A DNA stretch of 64,000 nt from an uncultured delta proteobacterium (GCA_963771175.1 CAVYSY010000038.1:96001-160000), one strand, 5' to 3'. Shown: positions 38,493-46,646, counted from the first letter of the stretch. Numbers and translations: made by a program. Notes: generated from the sequence alone by a model not told the origin.

Positions 38493-38615
38493 GGGGGCTC
38501 CTACGAATTGTCCGTTGCTCCATTCTCCCACGAAGCGGTGCGGAAGTTGCGTACCCCCCGCACTTTTCTGGCACGGTACCGTCCCCCTCTCTCCCTACAC
38601 GAAAGGAAGAAATCC

Positions 38616-38882
38616 ATGAGCGCGAAGCGTCTTCTGTCGTCGGCGGTGCTCCTGTCGGGCCTGCTGGCCCTCGCGGCCTGCGGCAGTGCCGAGATTGGCG
38701 AGGAGTGCGACAAGACGGGCAGCACCGACGAGTGCGTCGAGGGCGGCGTCTGCGACACCCTCGGCGGCGGCAGCACCACCCTGCAGTGTCTGAAGATCTG
38801 CACCGCGGACACCGACTGCCCCTCCACCCAGTCCTGCACCGGCGTGAGTGGCAGCAACCTGAAGGCCTGCCACAACAAGTAG
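38616..38882 (+). CDS. Small Cys-rich lipoprotein
   Basis: Lipobox LAAC; 8 further Cys. Confidence 0.75.
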   Translation: MSAKRLLSSAVLLSGLLALAACGSAEIGEECDKTGSTDECVEGGVCDTLGGGSTTLQCLKICTADTDCPSTQSCTGVSGSNLKACHNK

Positions 38883-39034
38883 GAATTCCGGCTCCGCGCG
38901 CGTGGCCGCTCTGACGGTGCGGGTGGGCTCGATCGAACCCATCCTCAAGCGGCAAGCAGCCACGCGCGCCGGGGTGAGTGCTCCTCGGGGCTTCCCGAAT
39001 GGCTACATCAATCCCAGGAGGAAGGGGTAAAGCC

Positions 39035-39451
39035 ATGCGTGAGAGCATTCTGGCGGCGATGATCTCGGCCGTGTCCTGGGGGGCGATGGGCACCGCCCTC
39101 GCGCAGCAGGGCAACTACCCGCTACAGCAACCCATGGCCGGCAGTTACTACCAGCAGCAGCCCATGGCCGGGAGCTACCAACTCCAGCAGCCCATGGCCG
39201 GGAGCTACTACCTCCAGCAGCCCATGGCGGGGAGCTACCAACTCCAGCAGCCCATGGCCGGGAGCTACCAACTCCAGCAACCGATGACTGGCAGCTACTA
39301 CCTCCAGCAGCCCATGGCGGGGAGCTATTACCTCCAGCAGCCGCTCATCGGCAGCGACTATGTCGAGCCGCTCTTCGACAACGACGTCTACGACATCAAC
39401 GAGCCCTACGTCGGCGGCTACGACCTCTATCCCCTTGACGCATCGGAGTAG
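39035..39451 (+). CDS. Secreted Gln/Tyr-rich tandem-repeat protein
   Basis: Signal peptide ending ALA; 7 QQPM(A/T)GSY(Y/Q)(L/Q) repeats plus 1 degenerate; acidic Tyr-rich tail. Confidence 0.75.
   Translation: MRESILAAMISAVSWGAMGTALAQQGNYPLQQPMAGSYYQQQPMAGSYQLQQPMAGSYYLQQPMAGSYQLQQPMAGSYQLQQPMTGSYYLQQPMAGSYYLQQPLIGSDYVEPLFDNDVYDINEPYVGGYDLYPLDASE
39125..39364 (+). repeat. 30-bp coding tandem repeat x8
   Basis: cagcagcccatggccgggagctac(c/t)a... units. Confidence 0.9.
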
Positions 39452-39702
39452 GAGGACCCCAAGGGTCAGCAGCCGAGCCGCTCCGTCATCCGCGTCTCAA
39501 CTCCGTGAGGGACGCTTCGCTCGAGCCTCAAGCCATCCGGCTGGCGTGAGGGGTGCGGTGGGGCTGTCACTCGAACCTCCCCCGGGAAGGGGACGGGCCC
39601 TCCCATGGCCGCCTGCCCTGCCTTGGCATGCGCGGGTGGAAGACGCACCTTCATCAAGCCTCACCCGTCCCGAAGACCTGGAGAGGGCGGAAGGAGAGCA
39701 TC

Positions 39703-41391
39703 ATGGAAGGCAGCCCACCTACCGGATGGCAGGCAATGGAGGCTGCGCCCGCAACGGCGACCGAGGTCGAGCACCCCCTGCCCCCCCGCACCCACTCCTT
39801 GAAACAGTTCATCCTGCGACTCCGCGACGCCAATAGACGCGGAGGCCCCGAGGCCATCGAGCAGGTGCTGCGCGAGGGCAGCCTGCACCGGCGCGCGGTG
39901 GAGCCCTTCGCCCTGCGGCGCGAGGGGCGCTACACGCGCACGCTCGTGTACCGGGACGAGGACTTGGAGGTGCTCGTGCTGGGCTGGGGCCGCGACGCGC
40001 GCACGCCCATCCACGGGCATGACGGCCAGGAGTGTTTCCTCACCACCATTACCGGGGAGCTGGAGGTGGCTGACTACCGCCTCATCGCCGGAGGCCAGGA
40101 GCCCGGCTATGCGCTCGTCGAGCGCGTCGGCCCCCGCCGTACGCTGCTGCCCGGCGCCATGGACCACCGCGGCCCCGAGGCGGAGCTGCACTCGGTGCGC
40201 ACCGGCGCGCGCAGCGGCTACGCCATCTCCCTCCACGTCTATTCCCGGCCCATCGACACCTGCCTGGTCTACGACCCACGCCGTTCGAGTTGCGACCTGC
40301 GCAAGCTTCATTACGACCGGGTGATGCGCCTCGTCGACCCCCCGCCCCCCACCGCCTCCCCTCGTCCCCAGGAGACGCCCGCCTCCCGCCCCGGACTCGT
40401 CTCCCGGGTGTGGCGCTCGCTCTTCCGCCGCGTGCAGGAGGTGAAGGAACTGCTGGTGCCCGCGAAGGTGGGCGCGGACTCGGCGAAGATCGCCGTCTCG
40501 AAGGTGGAGCACCGCTACGCCAACAAGGTGGTGGCGCTGAGCAACGTCAACCTCAACATCCGCTCCGGCGAGTTCGTCTGCCTGTTGGGGCCCTCGGGCT
40601 GCGGCAAGTCCACGCTGCTGTACGCGCTGGCGGGCCACATCGCCCCCACCGGGGGCACGGTGCGCATCGACGGCAAGCCCATCCACGGCCCGGGTCCGGA
40701 GCGGCTGCTCATGTTCCAGGAGCCGGCGCTCTTCCCGTGGCTCTCCGTGCGGCAGAACATCGAGTTCGTGCTCAGCGCCCGAGGCCTCTCCAAGGCCGAG
40801 CGCCGCGAGCGCGCGAGCCGCTACATCCACTACGTGCAGCTCTCGGGCTTCGAGAACACGCTGCCGCACGAGCTGTCGGGTGGAATGAAGATGCGCGCCG
40901 CGCTCGCCCGCGCGCTGGCGGTGGACTCGCCGGTGCTGTTGATGGACGAGCCCTTCGGCTCGCTGGACGCGCAGACGCGCCTGCACATGCACGAGCTGTT
41001 GCAGCGCGTGTGGCTGGAGACACACAAGACGATTGTCTTCGTCACCCATGACGTCACGGAGGCGCTGGTGCTGGCCAACCGGGTGGTGGTGATGGCGCCC
41101 CGGCCCGGCCGCGTCCTGAAGGACCTCGAGGTGCGGCTGCCCATGCCGCGAGGCCCCGACGACGTGGCGCTGGTGGGACTGGCGCGGCAGATCCGCGTGA
41201 TGCTCCGCGAGAGCGAGTCCATGGGCGGACCCGGGCCCGGTCTCCGGGAAGAGCAGGGGGCGCACCATGAAGGCCTGGCACCTGAGTCAGAAACTGCTGT
41301 TCCTCGCGGGGCTCCTCGCGGTGTGGGCCCTGCTCGCCCGGTTCGGCCCGTGGCCCCACCACCTGTTCCCGGGTCCGAAGGCGGTAGCTGA
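39703..41391 (+). CDS. Cysteine dioxygenase domain fused to SsuB/TauB/NitT-type ABC ATPase
   Basis: YTRTL..IHGHDGQECF..LHSV..SLHVYS; then GPSGCGKS, LSGGMKMR, LMDEPF, FVTHD in one frame. Confidence 0.85.
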   Translation: MEGSPPTGWQAMEAAPATATEVEHPLPPRTHSLKQFILRLRDANRRGGPEAIEQVLREGSLHRRAVEPFALRREGRYTRTLVYRDEDLEVLVLGWGRDARTPIHGHDGQECFLTTITGELEVADYRLIAGGQEPGYALVERVGPRRTLLPGAMDHRGPEAELHSVRTGARSGYAISLHVYSRPIDTCLVYDPRRSSCDLRKLHYDRVMRLVDPPPPTASPRPQETPASRPGLVSRVWRSLFRRVQEVKELLVPAKVGADSAKIAVSKVEHRYANKVVALSNVNLNIRSGEFVCLLGPSGCGKSTLLYALAGHIAPTGGTVRIDGKPIHGPGPERLLMFQEPALFPWLSVRQNIEFVLSARGLSKAERRERASRYIHYVQLSGFENTLPHELSGGMKMRAALARALAVDSPVLLMDEPFGSLDAQTRLHMHELLQRVWLETHKTIVFVTHDVTEALVLANRVVVMAPRPGRVLKDLEVRLPMPRGPDDVALVGLARQIRVMLRESESMGGPGPGLREEQGAHHEGLAPESETAVPRGAPRGVGPARPVRPVAPPPVPGSEGGS

Positions 41392-42031
41392 GAGCCTCTT
41401 CGCCATGGCGCGGGATGGCCGGCTGTGGAACGCCATCACGCGCTCCCTGGGGCGGCTCGCGCAGGGCTACGGCATCTCGGTGCTCATCGGCGTGCCGCTC
41501 GGCCTCGCCATGGGGCGACTGCGCTTCGTGCGGCGGTTGCTGCGCCCGCTGGTCGTGGGCCTGCAGGCGCTCCCCTCCATCTGCTGGCTGCCCCTGGCGC
41601 TGCTGTGGTTCGGCCTCACCGAGACGTCCATCATCTTCGTGGTGGTGATGGGCTCGGTGCTGGCCATCGCCATCGCGGTGGAGGACGGCGTCATGGGGGT
41701 GGACCCGCTGATGCTGCGCGTGGCCTCCACCTACGGCATCCGCGGCCCGCGCTTCTACGGCGGCGTGCTGCTGCCCGCGGCGCTGCCCGGCATCGTCACC
41801 GGCCTCAAGCTGGGGTGGAGCTTCGCCTGGAGGGCCCTCATGGCCGGCGAGCTGCTCTACGTGTCCGGCGGCCTGGGCCAGCTCCTCACCATGGGCCGCG
41901 AGCTGATGGAGATTCCCCAGGTCATCGCCGTCATGGTCTGCATCATCCTCGTGGGCACGGTCATCGACCGGGTGCTCTTCCAGACGGTGGAGCTGCGCGT
42001 GCGGCGCCGCTGGGGACTGGCGACGGGCTGA
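41267..42031 (+). CDS. ABC permease, SsuC/TauC/NitT family
   Basis: LQALPSICWLP, LPAALPGIVTG, WRALMAGEL. Confidence 0.92.
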   Translation: MKAWHLSQKLLFLAGLLAVWALLARFGPWPHHLFPGPKAVAESLFAMARDGRLWNAITRSLGRLAQGYGISVLIGVPLGLAMGRLRFVRRLLRPLVVGLQALPSICWLPLALLWFGLTETSIIFVVVMGSVLAIAIAVEDGVMGVDPLMLRVASTYGIRGPRFYGGVLLPAALPGIVTGLKLGWSFAWRALMAGELLYVSGGLGQLLTMGRELMEIPQVIAVMVCIILVGTVIDRVLFQTVELRVRRRWGLATG

Positions 42032-42093
42032 CAGTCACCCCGCACTCCAGTCCATGTGCGGCGAGCCCCGCCCCACCCCACCCTGAGCGGCCT

Positions 42094-43113
42094 ATGCGTA
42101 TCGGGTTCCTCGTCGCGAGTCTCGCCGCCCTCTGTCTGGCGGTGACCGGGTGCAAGAAGGAGCAGGCGGCGAAGCAGGCCGGCGGTGGGACGGAGCAGCG
42201 CCCGCTCCGGGTGGGCTTCTTCCCCAACATCACCCATGCGCAGGCCCTGGTGGGCAACGCCTCGGGGACCTTCCAGCAGGCCGTGCCCGGCATCGAGCTG
42301 AAGATGTTCAACGCGGGACCGGCCGCCATGGAGGCGCTCACCTCCGGCTCGCTCGAGGCCTCGTACGTGGGCACGGGGCCGGCCATCAACACCTTCCTCA
42401 AGGCCGGGCGGGAGCTGCGCATCATCGCCGCGGCGGTGGACAGTGGCGCGGTGCTGGTGACGAAGACGGCGCGCGGCCCGGCGGAGCTCAAGGGCAAGAC
42501 GCTGGCCAGCCCACAGCTCGGCAACACCCAGGACATCGCGCTGCGGCACTGGCTGGGCCAGCAGGGATTGAAGGTGGGGCAGGACGTCACCGTCACCCCG
42601 CTGTCCAACCCGGACATCCTCGGCCTCTTCCTCAACGGCAAGATTGAAGGGGCCTGGGTGCCCGAGCCGTGGGGCGCGCGCATGGTGGCCGAGGGCGGTG
42701 GCCATATCCTCGTGGACGAGCGCGACCTGTGGCCACAGCGGCGCTTCCACACCACGGTGCTCGTCACCACCCGGAAGACCCTGGAGGAGCGGCGCGAGCA
42801 ACTGAAGAAGCTGGTGCGCGCCCACGTGGAGCTCACCCGGCAGTGGCAGCAGCAGCCCGACGCCTTCGTCGGCCGCGTCAACGACGCCTTCGCCAAGGTG
42901 ACCGGACACCCCATCTCCGAGCCCGTGCTGAAGGATGCCTTCACCCGCCTGGAGCCCGCGCTGGACGCGGTGCCCGCTCAGCTCCAGACGGCCGCCGAGC
43001 ACGCACAACAGCTCGGCTTCATCCCCAGCTCCGACCTGAAGGGGCTCGTGGACGACTCCCTGCTGCGCGAGGTGATGGCCGCTCCGAGCGCGGCTCCGGA
43101 CGCGGGGCCGTGA
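42094..43113 (+). CDS. Aliphatic-sulfonate-type ABC substrate-binding lipoprotein
   Basis: Lipobox VTGC; GFFPNITHAQA, SPQLGNTQD, WVPEPW. Confidence 0.88.
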   Translation: MRIGFLVASLAALCLAVTGCKKEQAAKQAGGGTEQRPLRVGFFPNITHAQALVGNASGTFQQAVPGIELKMFNAGPAAMEALTSGSLEASYVGTGPAINTFLKAGRELRIIAAAVDSGAVLVTKTARGPAELKGKTLASPQLGNTQDIALRHWLGQQGLKVGQDVTVTPLSNPDILGLFLNGKIEGAWVPEPWGARMVAEGGGHILVDERDLWPQRRFHTTVLVTTRKTLEERREQLKKLVRAHVELTRQWQQQPDAFVGRVNDAFAKVTGHPISEPVLKDAFTRLEPALDAVPAQLQTAAEHAQQLGFIPSSDLKGLVDDSLLREVMAAPSAAPDAGP

Positions 43114-43135
43114 GCCACCTACACGGAGGAGGGGC

Positions 43136-43444
43136 TCAGCTCAGCTTCGGCGGGACGCGGTAGATTTCCTCCACGTCGTCGTGGTTGAAGAGCCCCATCG
43201 CCTCGCGCTGCACGATGAGCGACCACTGGCGGTACTCGGCATCACGACGCTTCTCGGTGTACTCCGCGAGCTTCTTCTCGCGCGCGGGTCCTGGCGCCAT
43301 CGCCTGCACCTGCTGCCCGAGCTGTCTCAGCTCGGTGAGCTGACGCTCCAACCTGTGCCCCAGGGCCTTGAGGCTGTTGGCTGCCTCGGCCCGCAGGGCC
43401 ACTTCGATGGCGAGTGTTCCACCGATGGGTGCCTTGCTGGACAT
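43136..43444 (-). CDS. Small helical hypothetical protein (DUF6665-like)
   Basis: IVQREAMGL..Y.VP motif. Confidence 0.6.
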   Translation of the reverse strand: MSSKAPIGGTLAIEVALRAEAANSLKALGHRLERQLTELRQLGQQVQAMAPGPAREKKLAEYTEKRRDAEYRQWSLIVQREAMGLFNHDDVEEIYRVPPKLS

Positions 43445-43499
43445 GCGCTCGATTTGGGGCCGGAAACGAGAGCGGGTTACGGTTCCAGCCCAGTCTCTC

Positions 43500-46400
43500 A
43501 TGACCGCCAAAAAATACCTTCATCTCTTCCTGGTCATCGGAGGCGTCCTCGGAGCTCTCGTGCTCGGCGGCGCGCTCCACTTCGTCACCGGCCAGCCGAG
43601 GGACTGGGCTGGCTGGTCCGTGTTGCTCCTCGGCACGCCCCTGCTGCTGCTGGTGACGAGTCAGCTCTTCTGGTGGGTGTGGGGGGCGAAGCGGGTCAGG
43701 GCGCGCACCCGCTTCTTCACCCAACTGGCCGAGGGAAACCTCACCCACACCGCCTATGGCGGCATGGAAGACCAGCGCGAGGTGCGCCGGCTCATCTACT
43801 CCCTGCGCCGCGCGCTCAGCCAGGTGCAGCGGGTGACGGGCAACGTGCGCCGCACCTGCCAGGGCGTGTCCGAGGAGGTGCGCGTGCTGCTGGAGGCCGC
43901 GCGCCGGCAGGGCGGGGCGGTGGAGCGCTCGCGGGAGTCGGTGGAGAGCATGGGCCAGAGCCTCCAGTCCGCGGGCAAGCGCATGACGCACCTGGAGACC
44001 TTCTCCCGGGAGACGGCGGGCTCGCTGCTCGAGATGTCCGAGCGGCTCGGACAGGTGGCCGAGGCGCTGCTCGCGCTGGACGACTTCTCGCACCGCACCA
44101 CCCAGCAGGTGCAGGCCATGAGCGAGCGGCTGCACCATATCGCCTCCTCGGGCGACGAGCTGGTGCGCTTCGCCAGCGAGGCGGAGGCCTTCGTCCAACT
44201 GGTGCGGACCGGCATCGACGCGGTGCGCCTGCGCGCCACGGAGACGAATCAGCTCGCCCACGACGTGACGGCCACCGCCGAGCGCGGCGAGGTGCTCGTC
44301 ACCGAGTGCGTCCAGGGCATGTACCGGGTGGAGGAGACGGTCCGCAAAGCCGCCGAGCTGGTGGACTCGCTCGGGGTGCGCTCCACGCAGATTGGCCGCA
44401 TCGTCGACGTCATCCAGGAGATCGCCGACCAGACGAACCTGCTGGCGCTCAACGCGGCCATCATCGCCGCGCAAGCCGGTGAGCAGGGGCGTCCCTTCGG
44501 CGTGGTGGCGGACGAAATCCGCGGCCTGGCCGAGCGCACCGCTCGCTCCACGCGGGAGATCGCCACCATGGTGGGCGGCGTCCGCCGGGAGGTGGACACG
44601 GCGGTGGCGCTGGTGAAGGAGGGCCGCGAGCAGGCCGGCACGGGTGTGCTGTTGGGAGACCGGGCGGCCGAGGCGCTGAAGGAAATCCGCACCATCACCC
44701 AGCGAACCTTCACGGCGGTGGAGGCCACGCTGACGGAGACGAAGCGGCTGGAGGCCCAGGGCTCCACGGTGGTGGAGGCCAGCCGCCGGGTGGCGCGGCG
44801 CGTGGACGACGTGACGCGAGAGGCCATCGCGCAGGCGGGGCACGGGCGAGAGCTGGTGCACCAGACGCAGCAGATGGCGAAGCTGGCACAGGAAGCCTCG
44901 CACAAGGCGGAGGGCCAGTCGCGCACGGGCCGGGACCTGTCCAACGCGGTGGTGCGACTGAACTCGGCCATCGAGGAGATTCGTTCGGCGCACGGCGTGC
45001 TGATGCGCGGGGACACGGCCATCGGCGAGGAGGTGGCGCGGGTGCGCGAGGACGCGCTCCAGGTCCTCCGCATCGGCGACGGACTGAGCCGCACGGTGGA
45101 GCAACTGGCCCACGAGGCGGCCAGCCTGGACGGCGAGGTGTTCCGCTTCCGGCTGCCGGCGCCACGCTCGGGCGGCACGCTCCGGGCGGGCATCCACCAG
45201 TCGACGTTCCTCAACACGCAGGGTCGATTGGATCCACTCTTCGGCGTGGAAATGCAGCTCGTGGAGATGAGCTGCGGCGTCTTCTCCAACCTGCTGCGGC
45301 TGGAGGACGGCGTGCTGGTGCCGGACCTGGCCGAGCGCTGGGAGGCGGACCCCTCGGCGCGCCGCTACCGCTTCTACCTGCGCCAGGGCGTCCTCTTCCA
45401 TGACGGGCAGCCCCTGACGGCGCGCGACGTGAAGCGCCACTTCGAGCGGCTGCTGGACCCGACGGTGAAATCGCCGGAGCGCGGCCTGCTGGAGGACGTA
45501 GAGGGCGCCAAGGCGTTCGCGGCCGGCAAGGCGCGTGAGGTGACGGGCATCGAGGTGCTGAACGACCTGACGCTCGACATCCGGCTGGAACAGCCCAAGG
45601 CCTTCTTCCTCCAACTGCTGGCGCAGACGGCCGCGGCGGTGGCCCGGCTGGACGCACAGGGCCAGCTTCAGGGCACGGGTCCCTTCCGGCTGGTGGACAT
45701 CGGGCCGACTCGCGTCGTGCTCGAGCGAAACCCCACCTATTGGCGCCGCGAACAGCCGCTGTTGGACCGGCTCGAGTTCCACATCCATGGGTCGCGCGAG
45801 GAATCCATCACGGCGCTGCGACAAGGGACGGTGGACCTCGCCTCGTACCTGCACGCCACACACGTGAAGCGCCTCGAGCAGGAGGGGCACCTCCAAGTCG
45901 TGCCAGGCACCACGCCCTCCACCTCGTTCCTGGGCTTCAACCTGCGAGAGGCACCGTACAACGACGTGCGCGTGCGCCAGGCCATTCGGGCGGGACTGGA
46001 CCTCCAGGGGTTGGTGAACGGCTTCCACGCGGGGGCACGCCTGGCCAGGACGCTGACACCGCCGGAGCTGCTGGACAGCTCGGGTCTGCCCGAGCCCCGC
46101 ATGGACCTCGACCTGTCCGTGCGCCTGCTGCACGAGGCCGGAGTGCGGCGGCTCCCCGTGACGCTGTACCAGACGGTGGGACGCGACACCTCGGCGGAGG
46201 ATGCCGTCCTCTTCCGCCCGCTGCTGGAGGCGGGGCTGGTGGAGCTGCGGCATGTGGAGGTGAGCGCGGAGGAGTTCGCGGAGCGGCGGCGCGAGGGACG
46301 GCTGCCCGTCTTCCGGTTGCACTGGGTCGCCGACTTCCCGGACCCGGACAACTTCCTCCACTTCCTGCTGAGCTCCCAAGCGCAGGGGGTGTACCCGCTG

Positions 46401-46646
46401 AGCTACCGCAACGAGGAGCTGGACACGCTCACCGCGGAGGCCCGCATCAGCATCGACCCGGAGCAGCGCAAGCAGCACTACCAGCGTGCGGAGAAGCTCG
46501 CCCAGCAGGACTGCCCCATCATCCCGCTCTTCCATCCCCGCGTGTACGCTGCGACGAGCGGCCGGGTGCAGGGACTTCGACTGCACCAGACGCCCCCCCA
46601 GGTGCGCTTCGAGGAGCTGTGGTTGGACGCGATGGAGGAGTCATGA
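43500..46646 (+). CDS. Methyl-accepting chemotaxis protein fused to family 5 (peptide/nickel) solute-binding domain
   Basis: 2 TM; IADQTNLLALNAAIIAAQAGEQGRPFGVVADEIR; then VPDLAERW, FHDG.PLTA.DV, GTGPF, W.ADFPDPDNF. Confidence 0.9.
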   Translation: MTAKKYLHLFLVIGGVLGALVLGGALHFVTGQPRDWAGWSVLLLGTPLLLLVTSQLFWWVWGAKRVRARTRFFTQLAEGNLTHTAYGGMEDQREVRRLIYSLRRALSQVQRVTGNVRRTCQGVSEEVRVLLEAARRQGGAVERSRESVESMGQSLQSAGKRMTHLETFSRETAGSLLEMSERLGQVAEALLALDDFSHRTTQQVQAMSERLHHIASSGDELVRFASEAEAFVQLVRTGIDAVRLRATETNQLAHDVTATAERGEVLVTECVQGMYRVEETVRKAAELVDSLGVRSTQIGRIVDVIQEIADQTNLLALNAAIIAAQAGEQGRPFGVVADEIRGLAERTARSTREIATMVGGVRREVDTAVALVKEGREQAGTGVLLGDRAAEALKEIRTITQRTFTAVEATLTETKRLEAQGSTVVEASRRVARRVDDVTREAIAQAGHGRELVHQTQQMAKLAQEASHKAEGQSRTGRDLSNAVVRLNSAIEEIRSAHGVLMRGDTAIGEEVARVREDALQVLRIGDGLSRTVEQLAHEAASLDGEVFRFRLPAPRSGGTLRAGIHQSTFLNTQGRLDPLFGVEMQLVEMSCGVFSNLLRLEDGVLVPDLAERWEADPSARRYRFYLRQGVLFHDGQPLTARDVKRHFERLLDPTVKSPERGLLEDVEGAKAFAAGKAREVTGIEVLNDLTLDIRLEQPKAFFLQLLAQTAAAVARLDAQGQLQGTGPFRLVDIGPTRVVLERNPTYWRREQPLLDRLEFHIHGSREESITALRQGTVDLASYLHATHVKRLEQEGHLQVVPGTTPSTSFLGFNLREAPYNDVRVRQAIRAGLDLQGLVNGFHAGARLARTLTPPELLDSSGLPEPRMDLDLSVRLLHEAGVRRLPVTLYQTVGRDTSAEDAVLFRPLLEAGLVELRHVEVSAEEFAERRREGRLPVFRLHWVADFPDPDNFLHFLLSSQAQGVYPLSYRNEELDTLTAEARISIDPEQRKQHYQRAEKLAQQDCPIIPLFHPRVYAATSGRVQGLRLHQTPPQVRFEELWLDAMEES

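Follow-up and report, generated by a model that had tools for sequence, protein, structure and literature searches.

Conserved fusion of a cysteine dioxygenase to a NitT/TauT-family importer ATPase in Archangium-type myxobacteria

A gene found in a 64,000-nucleotide stretch of DNA from an uncultured delta proteobacterium (GCA_963771175.1, CAVYSY010000038.1:96001-160000), referred to here as the window, encodes a cysteine dioxygenase (CDO) and the ATPase of an ATP-binding cassette (ABC) importer within a single protein of 562 amino acids. The gene belongs to Archangium-type myxobacteria, and it is a real, conserved fusion of an Arg-type CDO to an importer ATPase of the NitT/TauT family. The window has a G+C content of about 70%, and a protein search places the closest named relatives of its proteins in Archangium, Vitiosangium, Cystobacter and Melittangium. 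Coordinates of the gene, its parts and its operon partners are collected in Table 1.

The protein (P0001) starts at the ATG at 39703, a position that aligns with the starts of its relatives, and its open reading frame (ORF) lies within a longer open frame at 39553..41391 on the plus strand. The frame is open between the two domains in all fifteen loci compared, namely the window and 14 related genomic loci; the test applied was that one open frame contain both the CDO part and the ABC signature, and Pfam was used additionally on L018-L020. Among 25 aligned fusion proteins, with end-to-end identity of 48-91%, none has a stop between the domains, and insertions and deletions in the spacer keep the frame. 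A 10.6-kb contig from run X1 spans positions 39593-41500 with 14 mismatches and 0 gaps, and short metagenome contigs of runs X2 and X5 bridge the junction. Ratios of nonsynonymous to synonymous substitution (dN/dS) against the window, obtained for nine loci of the same genus, are 0.18-0.31 in the CDO part, 0.25-0.36 in the ATPase, 0.17-1.69 in the spacer and 0.8-1.5 in the C-terminal tail. The CDO part is under constraint equal to that on the ATPase. The original prediction, made from the window sequence by itself, was of one continuous ORF carrying both a CDO and an ATPase, and it is borne out by the loci, the proteins and the contigs alike.

Pfam model CDO_I (PF05995) matches residues 70-192 of the protein with an E-value of 2.3e-11 and a score of 44 bits against a cutoff of 23, and a profile search of the window genome finds CDO_I in the fusion only. 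By phmmer, the best match in the PDB for the N-terminal 256 residues is mammalian CDO1 (2b5h, 2atf, 6bgf; E-value 2e-10), with about 30% identity over 125-145 residues and with the catalytic residues and both cross-link partners aligned. In the printed alignments, window residues Arg79, His104, His106, Cys111, His163, Ser176, His178, Tyr180 and Cys187 correspond to Arg60, His86, His88, Cys93, His140, Ser153, His155, Tyr157 and Cys164 of the rat enzyme. The correspondence extends through the motifs: RYTR pairs with RYTR (Arg60), followed by HxH, a Cys five residues on (Cys93), LH (His140) and SLHVY..C. A complete domain with the Arg, HxH..H and SLHVY features had been predicted, and the Pfam and PDB alignments agree.

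All three His ligands of the iron site (His104, His106 and His163) are kept in 22 of the 25 fusion proteins, Arg79 is invariant in all 25, the Ser-His-Tyr triad (Ser176, His178, Tyr180) is present in the window, and 21 of the 25 retain the whole set of Arg60, three His, Cys93, His155 and Tyr157 equivalents. Judged by these residues, the active site may tentatively be regarded as catalytically competent, that of a mammal-like Arg-type CDO that would form cysteine sulfinate in an Fe(II)-dependent reaction. Work by Driggers in 2015 is said to tie residues of the Arg60 type to free L-cysteine and not to an exotic thiol. Among thiol dioxygenases, Arg60 marks CDO and the Gln-type enzymes are 3MDO, while Pfam CDO_I spans several specificities (PMC8050391).

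Cys111 and Tyr180 together make up a mammalian-type Cys-Tyr pair and are putative thioether partners. In mammalian CDO the corresponding Cys-Tyr cofactor raises activity about 20-fold and has been proposed to arise after many turnovers under excess substrate (PMC11951088). The original prediction had contrasted the Cys at this position with the Gly usual in characterised bacterial CDOs. The contrast is right for the solved Bacillus subtilis CdoA/YubC (3eqe, 4qm8), a standalone protein with the same fold, the same 3-His/Tyr site and a weaker match to the window (E-value 2e-3), which has Gly at the Cys93 position. The Cys is not special to the fusion: it is invariant in all 18 aligned sequences, meaning the window domain and 17 relatives, with standalone bacterial proteins included. 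The window domain differs from mammalian CDO1 in being bacterial and ABC-fused, and the proteins most closely related to it are bacterial and uncharacterised rather than eukaryotic. The same GTDB family also contains a Gly-type, B. subtilis-like CDO, at L033:314-850 (+) in G078 (genus g15). Separately, the best relatives of the window CDO domain include four long proteins of 672-924 residues (P0123, P0127, P0138 and P0145), each having three or four CDO_I domains in tandem (Pfam E-values 1e-95 to 1e-106).

An AlphaFold2 (AF2) run with a 25-row alignment returned two confident domains (residues 30-211 and 249-507), with a predicted local distance difference test score (pLDDT) below 50 across residues 212-248 and a predicted template modelling score (pTM) of 0.52; the model has a helix at 232-248 and a strand at 251-253. 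The ATPase also occurs in unfused form, in orthologues of about 310 residues from Anaeromyxobacter and other Myxococcota. At their N-terminus a basic amphipathic helix precedes the sequence 'LLVP..R....AKIAV', and the two together are the counterpart of fusion residues 232-262. On this comparison the amphipathic 'linker' is the native N-terminus of the ATPase subfamily, so that the CDO domain and the Pro-rich spacer are all that fusion added. Of the Pro-rich and amphipathic linker first described, the Pro-rich spacer is present as such and the amphipathic part is not fusion-specific.

The ATPase has an ABC_tran domain at residues 279-418 (Pfam, E-value 7.4e-32) and a full set of motifs: Walker A GPSGCGKST, the Q-loop, the LSGGM signature, Walker B LLMDEP and the H-loop His449. 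These motifs, with an adjacent BPD_transp_1 permease and a binding protein, place it among the NitT/TauT-family importer ATPases. Foldseek finds CmpC/D and NrtC/D closest, at 36-40% identity and TM-scores of 0.84-0.88 (target-normalised). The permease gene begins, in another frame, inside the fusion ORF, whose final 125 nucleotides (41267..41391) it overlaps; the low-complexity tail that these nucleotides help encode, absent in P0035, P0039 and P0043-45, looks like read-through constrained by the permease frame.

Of the 120 clusters at 90% identity that the protein search listed, 38 contain PF05995 together with PF00005. P0039, P0044 and P0045, three further clusters, match these in length and architecture, but their CDO part has degenerated too far for the precomputed Pfam annotation to detect it. 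Among the genomes sampled, the CDO part has matches in 68 of 151 from the same GTDB family and in 108 of 401 from across the phylum. A long open frame that includes the spacer is present in ten of ten genomes of genus g1, plus the window genome, and in eight of eight of genus g22, and it is the sole place where a CDO is matched in each. Exceptions to the intact form are one g1 copy split over two contigs and one g22 copy with an in-frame TGA in the CDO part (G121:C2:10981645-10982318), which may be a pseudogene or a sequencing error. Such frames also occur in single genomes of g50, g9, g38 and g3; G038 and G054 were taken no further in this survey. None was seen outside this GTDB family among the 401 phylum genomes. 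The search for CDO_I with ABC_tran in related genomes that the original prediction had proposed has thus found the architecture in relatives from one GTDB family. In a library of 1.84 billion representative sequences, a search with the CDO part yields 955 proteins at E <= 1e-3, and among the best 150 of these only P0029 and P0044 are CDO-ABC fusions. We found no report of a CDO-ABC ATPase fusion in the literature searched, which was full text with subscription journals outside its coverage, and within those bounds the earlier description of the fusion as undescribed holds. Database names for these proteins are generic ('ATP-binding cassette domain-containing protein').

Other genera encode a standalone CDO of 200-300 residues, 35-45% identical to the fused domain and set in housekeeping surroundings. 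Loci in Myxococcus-like genomes read mnmE-Uma2-MshEN-CDO-SppA, and those in family f5 read gmk-mutL-CDO-TPR-OMP. Close to where the locus was expected in G092, an Archangium-like complete genome, SppA is the only one of these genes present, and CDO, MshEN and MnmE are not found within 6 kb. A standalone CDO coexists with an unfused ATPase orthologue in four Myxococcus-like genomes; the two are separated by 60-120 kb, and the orthologue (64-70% identical, with the helix present) belongs to the same three-gene operon. A conserved ORF of 188-224 residues with two hydrophobic stretches and no Pfam match precedes the unfused operons, as at L030:5947-6621 (+) and L031:7373-7939 (-). It was considered as a possible CDO relative and rejected, with an hhalign probability of 0.3%.

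A quick maximum-likelihood tree was built from 109 CDO domains, excluding proteins of at least 300 residues and matches after P0215; it is unrooted and its deep nodes are weak. All 28 fused CDO domains form one clade with an SH-aLRT value of 97; the standalone CDOs group elsewhere, those from Myxococcus-like genera and those from family f5 in clades of their own. Four short proteins (P0121, P0122, P0129 and P0132) fall within the clade of fused domains. An ABC name and a contig of 1.3 kb make P0121 a probable truncated fusion; the contigs that carry P0122 and P0129 measure 2.3-2.5 kb. P0132 may be a true standalone form, its cluster-mate P0270 being on a 23-kb contig. A single fusion event is the simplest reading of this unrooted tree.

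The other four of the 25 fusion proteins have altered CDO domains. In P0035 the iron site and Tyr are kept, with Ser at the Cys93 position and Gln at the His155 position. P0039, P0044 (identical to a protein of G002) and P0045 have each lost the equivalents of His86, His140 and Tyr157 and kept that of Arg60. These losses fall in two different branches of the fused clade in the tree, so iron ligands have been lost in two or more sublineages. The CDO parts of P0044 and P0045 are 92% identical, their spacers 49% and their ATPases 100%, which indicates that the iron-less domain is still under constraint. AF2 gives the P0044 domain a pLDDT of about 86-95, in a model aided by an alignment of intact relatives. 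That iron-less domains are both retained and conserved points to a role beyond catalysis, and these apparent pseudoenzyme forms are the chief argument for one.

Genes for a permease and a substrate-binding lipoprotein follow the fusion, the same gene set and families as Escherichia coli TauABC and SsuABC, and the TauB, SsuB, TauC, SsuC, TauA and SsuA models are among the top matches. The specific assignments fail. The ATPase scores 228 on NF008421 against a cutoff of 357 and 176 on NF008420 against 395, so it is not placed with the TauB or SsuB equivalogs, and across the operon the cutoffs for TauB, SsuB, SaoA, TauC, SsuC and TauA are all missed. The SaoA, SaoP and SaoX names from NCBIfam, which go back to a preprint on selenoproteins, were judged irrelevant, with every score below cutoff. 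On the family model TIGR01728 (SsuA_fam) the lipoprotein scores 163.0, just under the cutoff of 163.5. Its best PDB match is TauA (6ssy, E-value 3e-13), in which Glu106, Thr132 and Asp205 hold the taurine amine (PMC6906117); phmmer aligns these with Gly, Asn and Thr in the window lipoprotein, a mapping that is uncertain in a low-identity pairwise alignment.

Neither SsuD nor TauD was found in the window genome, which is 82% complete, and SsuD is above cutoff in none of five complete relatives, in a survey that is not proof of absence. TauD-family matches occur in four of the five; the distances from the fusion, taken for four sites in G092 and G093 only, are 0.4-10 Mb, and the matches in G102 are weak and lie on the far side of its single-contig genome from the fusion. 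With the equivalog cutoffs missed, the taurine residues replaced and no SsuD or TauD found, 'sulfonate-type' is best taken as a family-level label only. That part of the original prediction therefore stands for NitT/TauT membership and for the permease and SsuA-like lipoprotein downstream, and not for a sulfonate specificity. In the reading put forward below, the transported substrate would probably be an organosulfur compound. To our knowledge, the NMT1_2/SsuA type is not a cysteine-binding family. Binding proteins of the fused and unfused operons are 62-66% identical and have all conserved motifs in common, and the substrate was therefore probably unchanged by the fusion.

The reading that we prefer, and hold tentatively, is that the fused domain is an active, membrane-tethered CDO that also reports cysteine status to the importer. 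The flexible Pro-rich tether would join the CDO to the native amphipathic N-terminus of the ATPase, placing two CDO domains under each transporter. Each would bind cytoplasmic L-cysteine at its Fe(II) center, with Arg79 on the carboxylate, and oxidize it to cysteine sulfinate. While substrate is bound, the CDO would restrain the ATPase dimer, so that import is throttled at high cysteine and released once the cysteine has been consumed, a brake resembling trans-inhibition but built from an enzyme. Where the iron ligands are lost, the domain would persist as a sensor or scaffold without catalytic activity. A Cys-Tyr cofactor formed slowly under excess would suit gain control, although this is speculation. 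In its most specific form the proposal is more doubtful: the importer would be gated from the cytoplasmic side by an enzyme-derived sensor of cysteine, possibly of O2 or iron, with substrate-bound CDO holding the ATPases apart, turnover resetting the system, the Cys-Tyr cross-link setting the gain after sustained cysteine excess, and some lineages keeping a pure pseudoenzyme sensor. Activity, cysteine as the ligand, the effect on ATPase and transport and the transported substrate are all matters that we infer, and so are the two roles offered in the original prediction, gating of uptake or oxidation of an imported thiol.

Regulation of importers by domains attached to their ATPases has precedents. 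Within the same NitT/TauT family, NrtC and CmpC (8wm7, 8w9m, 9ua0, 9ua1) are ATPases with an extra domain that binds ligand and regulates transport (PMC10945777; PMC13287603); it is C-terminal, resembles a substrate-binding protein, is non-enzymatic and works with PII. The extra domain of the window fusion is instead a cupin enzyme, placed N-terminally and connected by a disordered tether. Regulatory domains on importer ATPases are known also from MetN (C2) and ModC, where the fused domain senses a cytoplasmic metabolite and blocks closure of the ATPases (PMC10710835). The likeness of MetNI and ModBC to the window fusion is conceptual only. Their domains dimerize under the ATPases and bind the transported substrate; the window fusion has an N-terminal extra domain and no predicted packing, and we do not claim membership in this group.

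Several observations weigh against a regulatory role for the fused domain. The AF2 models have no confident packing of CDO against ATPase, and a disordered stretch of 37-52 residues lies between the domains. Just three ATPase positions, all with conservative exchanges (T316/S, V320/I and K396/R), separate 25 fused from 74 unfused sequences, where some rows of the unfused set are truncated fusions such as P0046; no fusion-specific surface is therefore visible. Known trans-inhibition domains sit at the C-terminus and dimerize, whereas the fused CDO is N-terminal on a spacer of variable length. In relatives with a standalone CDO, none of 11 loci scanned for ORFs has an ABC gene adjoining the CDO gene (L026 and L028 were left out of the count, their CDO gene having been missed by the ORF filter), so that gene neighborhood gives no independent link between the two functions. 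The sole RNA run, metatranscriptome X20, matches positions 40591-41500 at about 90% identity, which is the ATPase and permease part of a relative and not the CDO part or any transcript start. Finally, the sulfur logic of the proposal is an assumption.

A rival reading is a tethered, autonomous housekeeping CDO, fused to and co-expressed with the importer ATPase, active at the membrane face without influence on transport and kept because splitting would need a new start. This is nearly as likely as a cysteine-reporting role. It is favored by the flexible tether and low pTM, by an ATPase nearly unaltered by fusion, by binding proteins with no sign of a change of substrate, and by the fusion being the sole CDO of its genome where other genera of the family keep a standalone one. 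An enzyme-only role leaves unexplained why iron-less domains are kept with far higher identity than their spacers, and no reversion to split genes has been confirmed among the members checked, although P0132/P0270 may be standalone. The same degenerate members, which could not oxidize anything, argue against vectorial oxidation, in which a thiol (cysteine, or a sulfonate or acid with a thiol group) would enter through the importer and be oxidized to the sulfinate by the tethered CDO at the permease exit, as protection from thiol toxicity. An enzyme held at the cytoplasmic mouth by the amphipathic N-terminal helix would be well placed for this. The case is weakened by sister genera that run an orthologous transporter, 64-70% identical, with no fused or adjacent dioxygenase, by the NMT1_2/SsuA type of the binding protein and by the Arg60-type residues with their reported link to free L-cysteine, and we regard it as rather unlikely. 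A domain with a CDO fold and another function, either binding or oxidizing some other small molecule or serving only as a module for ATPase dimerization or stability, is unlikely too. Members that lack the iron ligands exist, and CDO_I does cover several thiol dioxygenase specificities, the Gln-type 3MDO among them (PMC8050391), but the complete set of residues that define mammalian CDO in 21 of 25 proteins is hard to account for without cysteine chemistry.

Least probable by far is that the gene makes two proteins, whether because a stop or frameshift was overlooked or because an internal start is conserved. A GTG at 40456, the Val codon of the LVP strand, is preceded by a Shine-Dalgarno-like GAAGGA, and the original prediction had named a start hereabouts as a sign that the genes might be separate. 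We rejected this candidate, since the codon is GTC or GTT in 11 of the 15 loci. The gene of Melittangium boletus (P0021/P0036) is annotated in GenBank with 557 residues and in RefSeq as a 321-residue ATPase that begins at an internal ATG and is 100% identical to residues 237-557 of the GenBank form. The Met in question is not conserved in genus g1, and the short RefSeq annotation hides the CDO domain. Independent contigs show no insertion or deletion in the ORF, and purifying selection on the CDO part implies its translation, which must run on into the ATPase as no stop lies between the domains in any locus or protein compared. The two-gene arrangement thus fails, and a cysteine-reporting CDO remains the reading that we favor.

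Table 1. Parts of the fusion gene and its operon partners, numbered from the first nucleotide of the window.
Feature	Position	Strand	Basis and remarks
Shine-Dalgarno-like AAGGAG	39691..39696	+	6 nt 5' of ATG 39703; read from sequence; starts of relatives align
Fusion gene, 562 codons and stop (CDO domain, spacer, ABC ATPase)	39703..41391	+	ORF, Pfam, alignment of relatives
Cysteine dioxygenase (cupin) domain, residues 30-211	39790..40335	+	Pfam CDO_I, PDB alignments, AF2 pLDDT ~85-94, dN/dS
Pro-rich disordered spacer, residues 212-231	40336..40395	+	In-frame indels, pLDDT <50, dN/dS 0.17-1.69; length and sequence vary among relatives
Amphipathic basic helix and LVP strand, residues 232-253	40396..40461	+	Same motif opens unfused ~310-aa orthologues
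ABC nucleotide-binding domain, residues 249-507	40447..41223	+	Pfam, NCBIfam, Foldseek, motifs from translation
Low-complexity tail, residues 508-562 and stop	41224..41391	+	pLDDT <50 from residue 509; dN/dS 0.8-1.5 with low dS
Permease BPD_transp_1, 254 aa	41267..42031	+	ORF, Pfam, NCBIfam
Substrate-binding lipoprotein, 339 aa, NMT1_2 / SsuA-family-like	42094..43113	+	Pfam, NCBIfam; signal ends LAVTGC (putative lipobox)

Other features surround the operon. Just 5' of the fusion gene is an ORF of 157 residues (38978..39451, plus strand) with about nine tandem 'QQPMAGSY(Y)L' repeats and no Pfam match. The X1 contig, otherwise about 99% identical to the window, has 1174 extra bases replacing a 99-nt stretch at 39493..39593, directly 5' of the fusion start. 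Scans with Rfam and for promoters and terminators over 38500-43600 gave nothing above chance. On the 3' side, an ORF of 1092 residues at 43368..46646 (plus strand) combines an MCP signalling domain with a solute-binding domain of family 5 (SBP_bac_5), and an ORF with a weak DUF6665 match lies at 43136..43510 on the strand opposite to it.

In known ABC importers, a small ligand-binding domain fused to the ATPase can throttle uptake. We know of no described case in which the throttling domain is a working redox enzyme. Automated annotation conceals the CDO domain here, through generic names and through one RefSeq record cut to the ATPase. If the CDO does gate transport, the fusion would represent a new coupling of metabolism to uptake, with a natural series that leads from active enzyme to pseudoenzyme sensor. 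It would then rank as the first trans-inhibition module of an ABC importer to be made from an enzyme, and would give a Cys-Tyr-type CDO its first physiological role in bacteria. Even if the two halves act independently, a whole clade of bacterial CDOs has the mammalian Cys93/Tyr157 pair, so that the Cys-Tyr cofactor could be studied in bacterial proteins.

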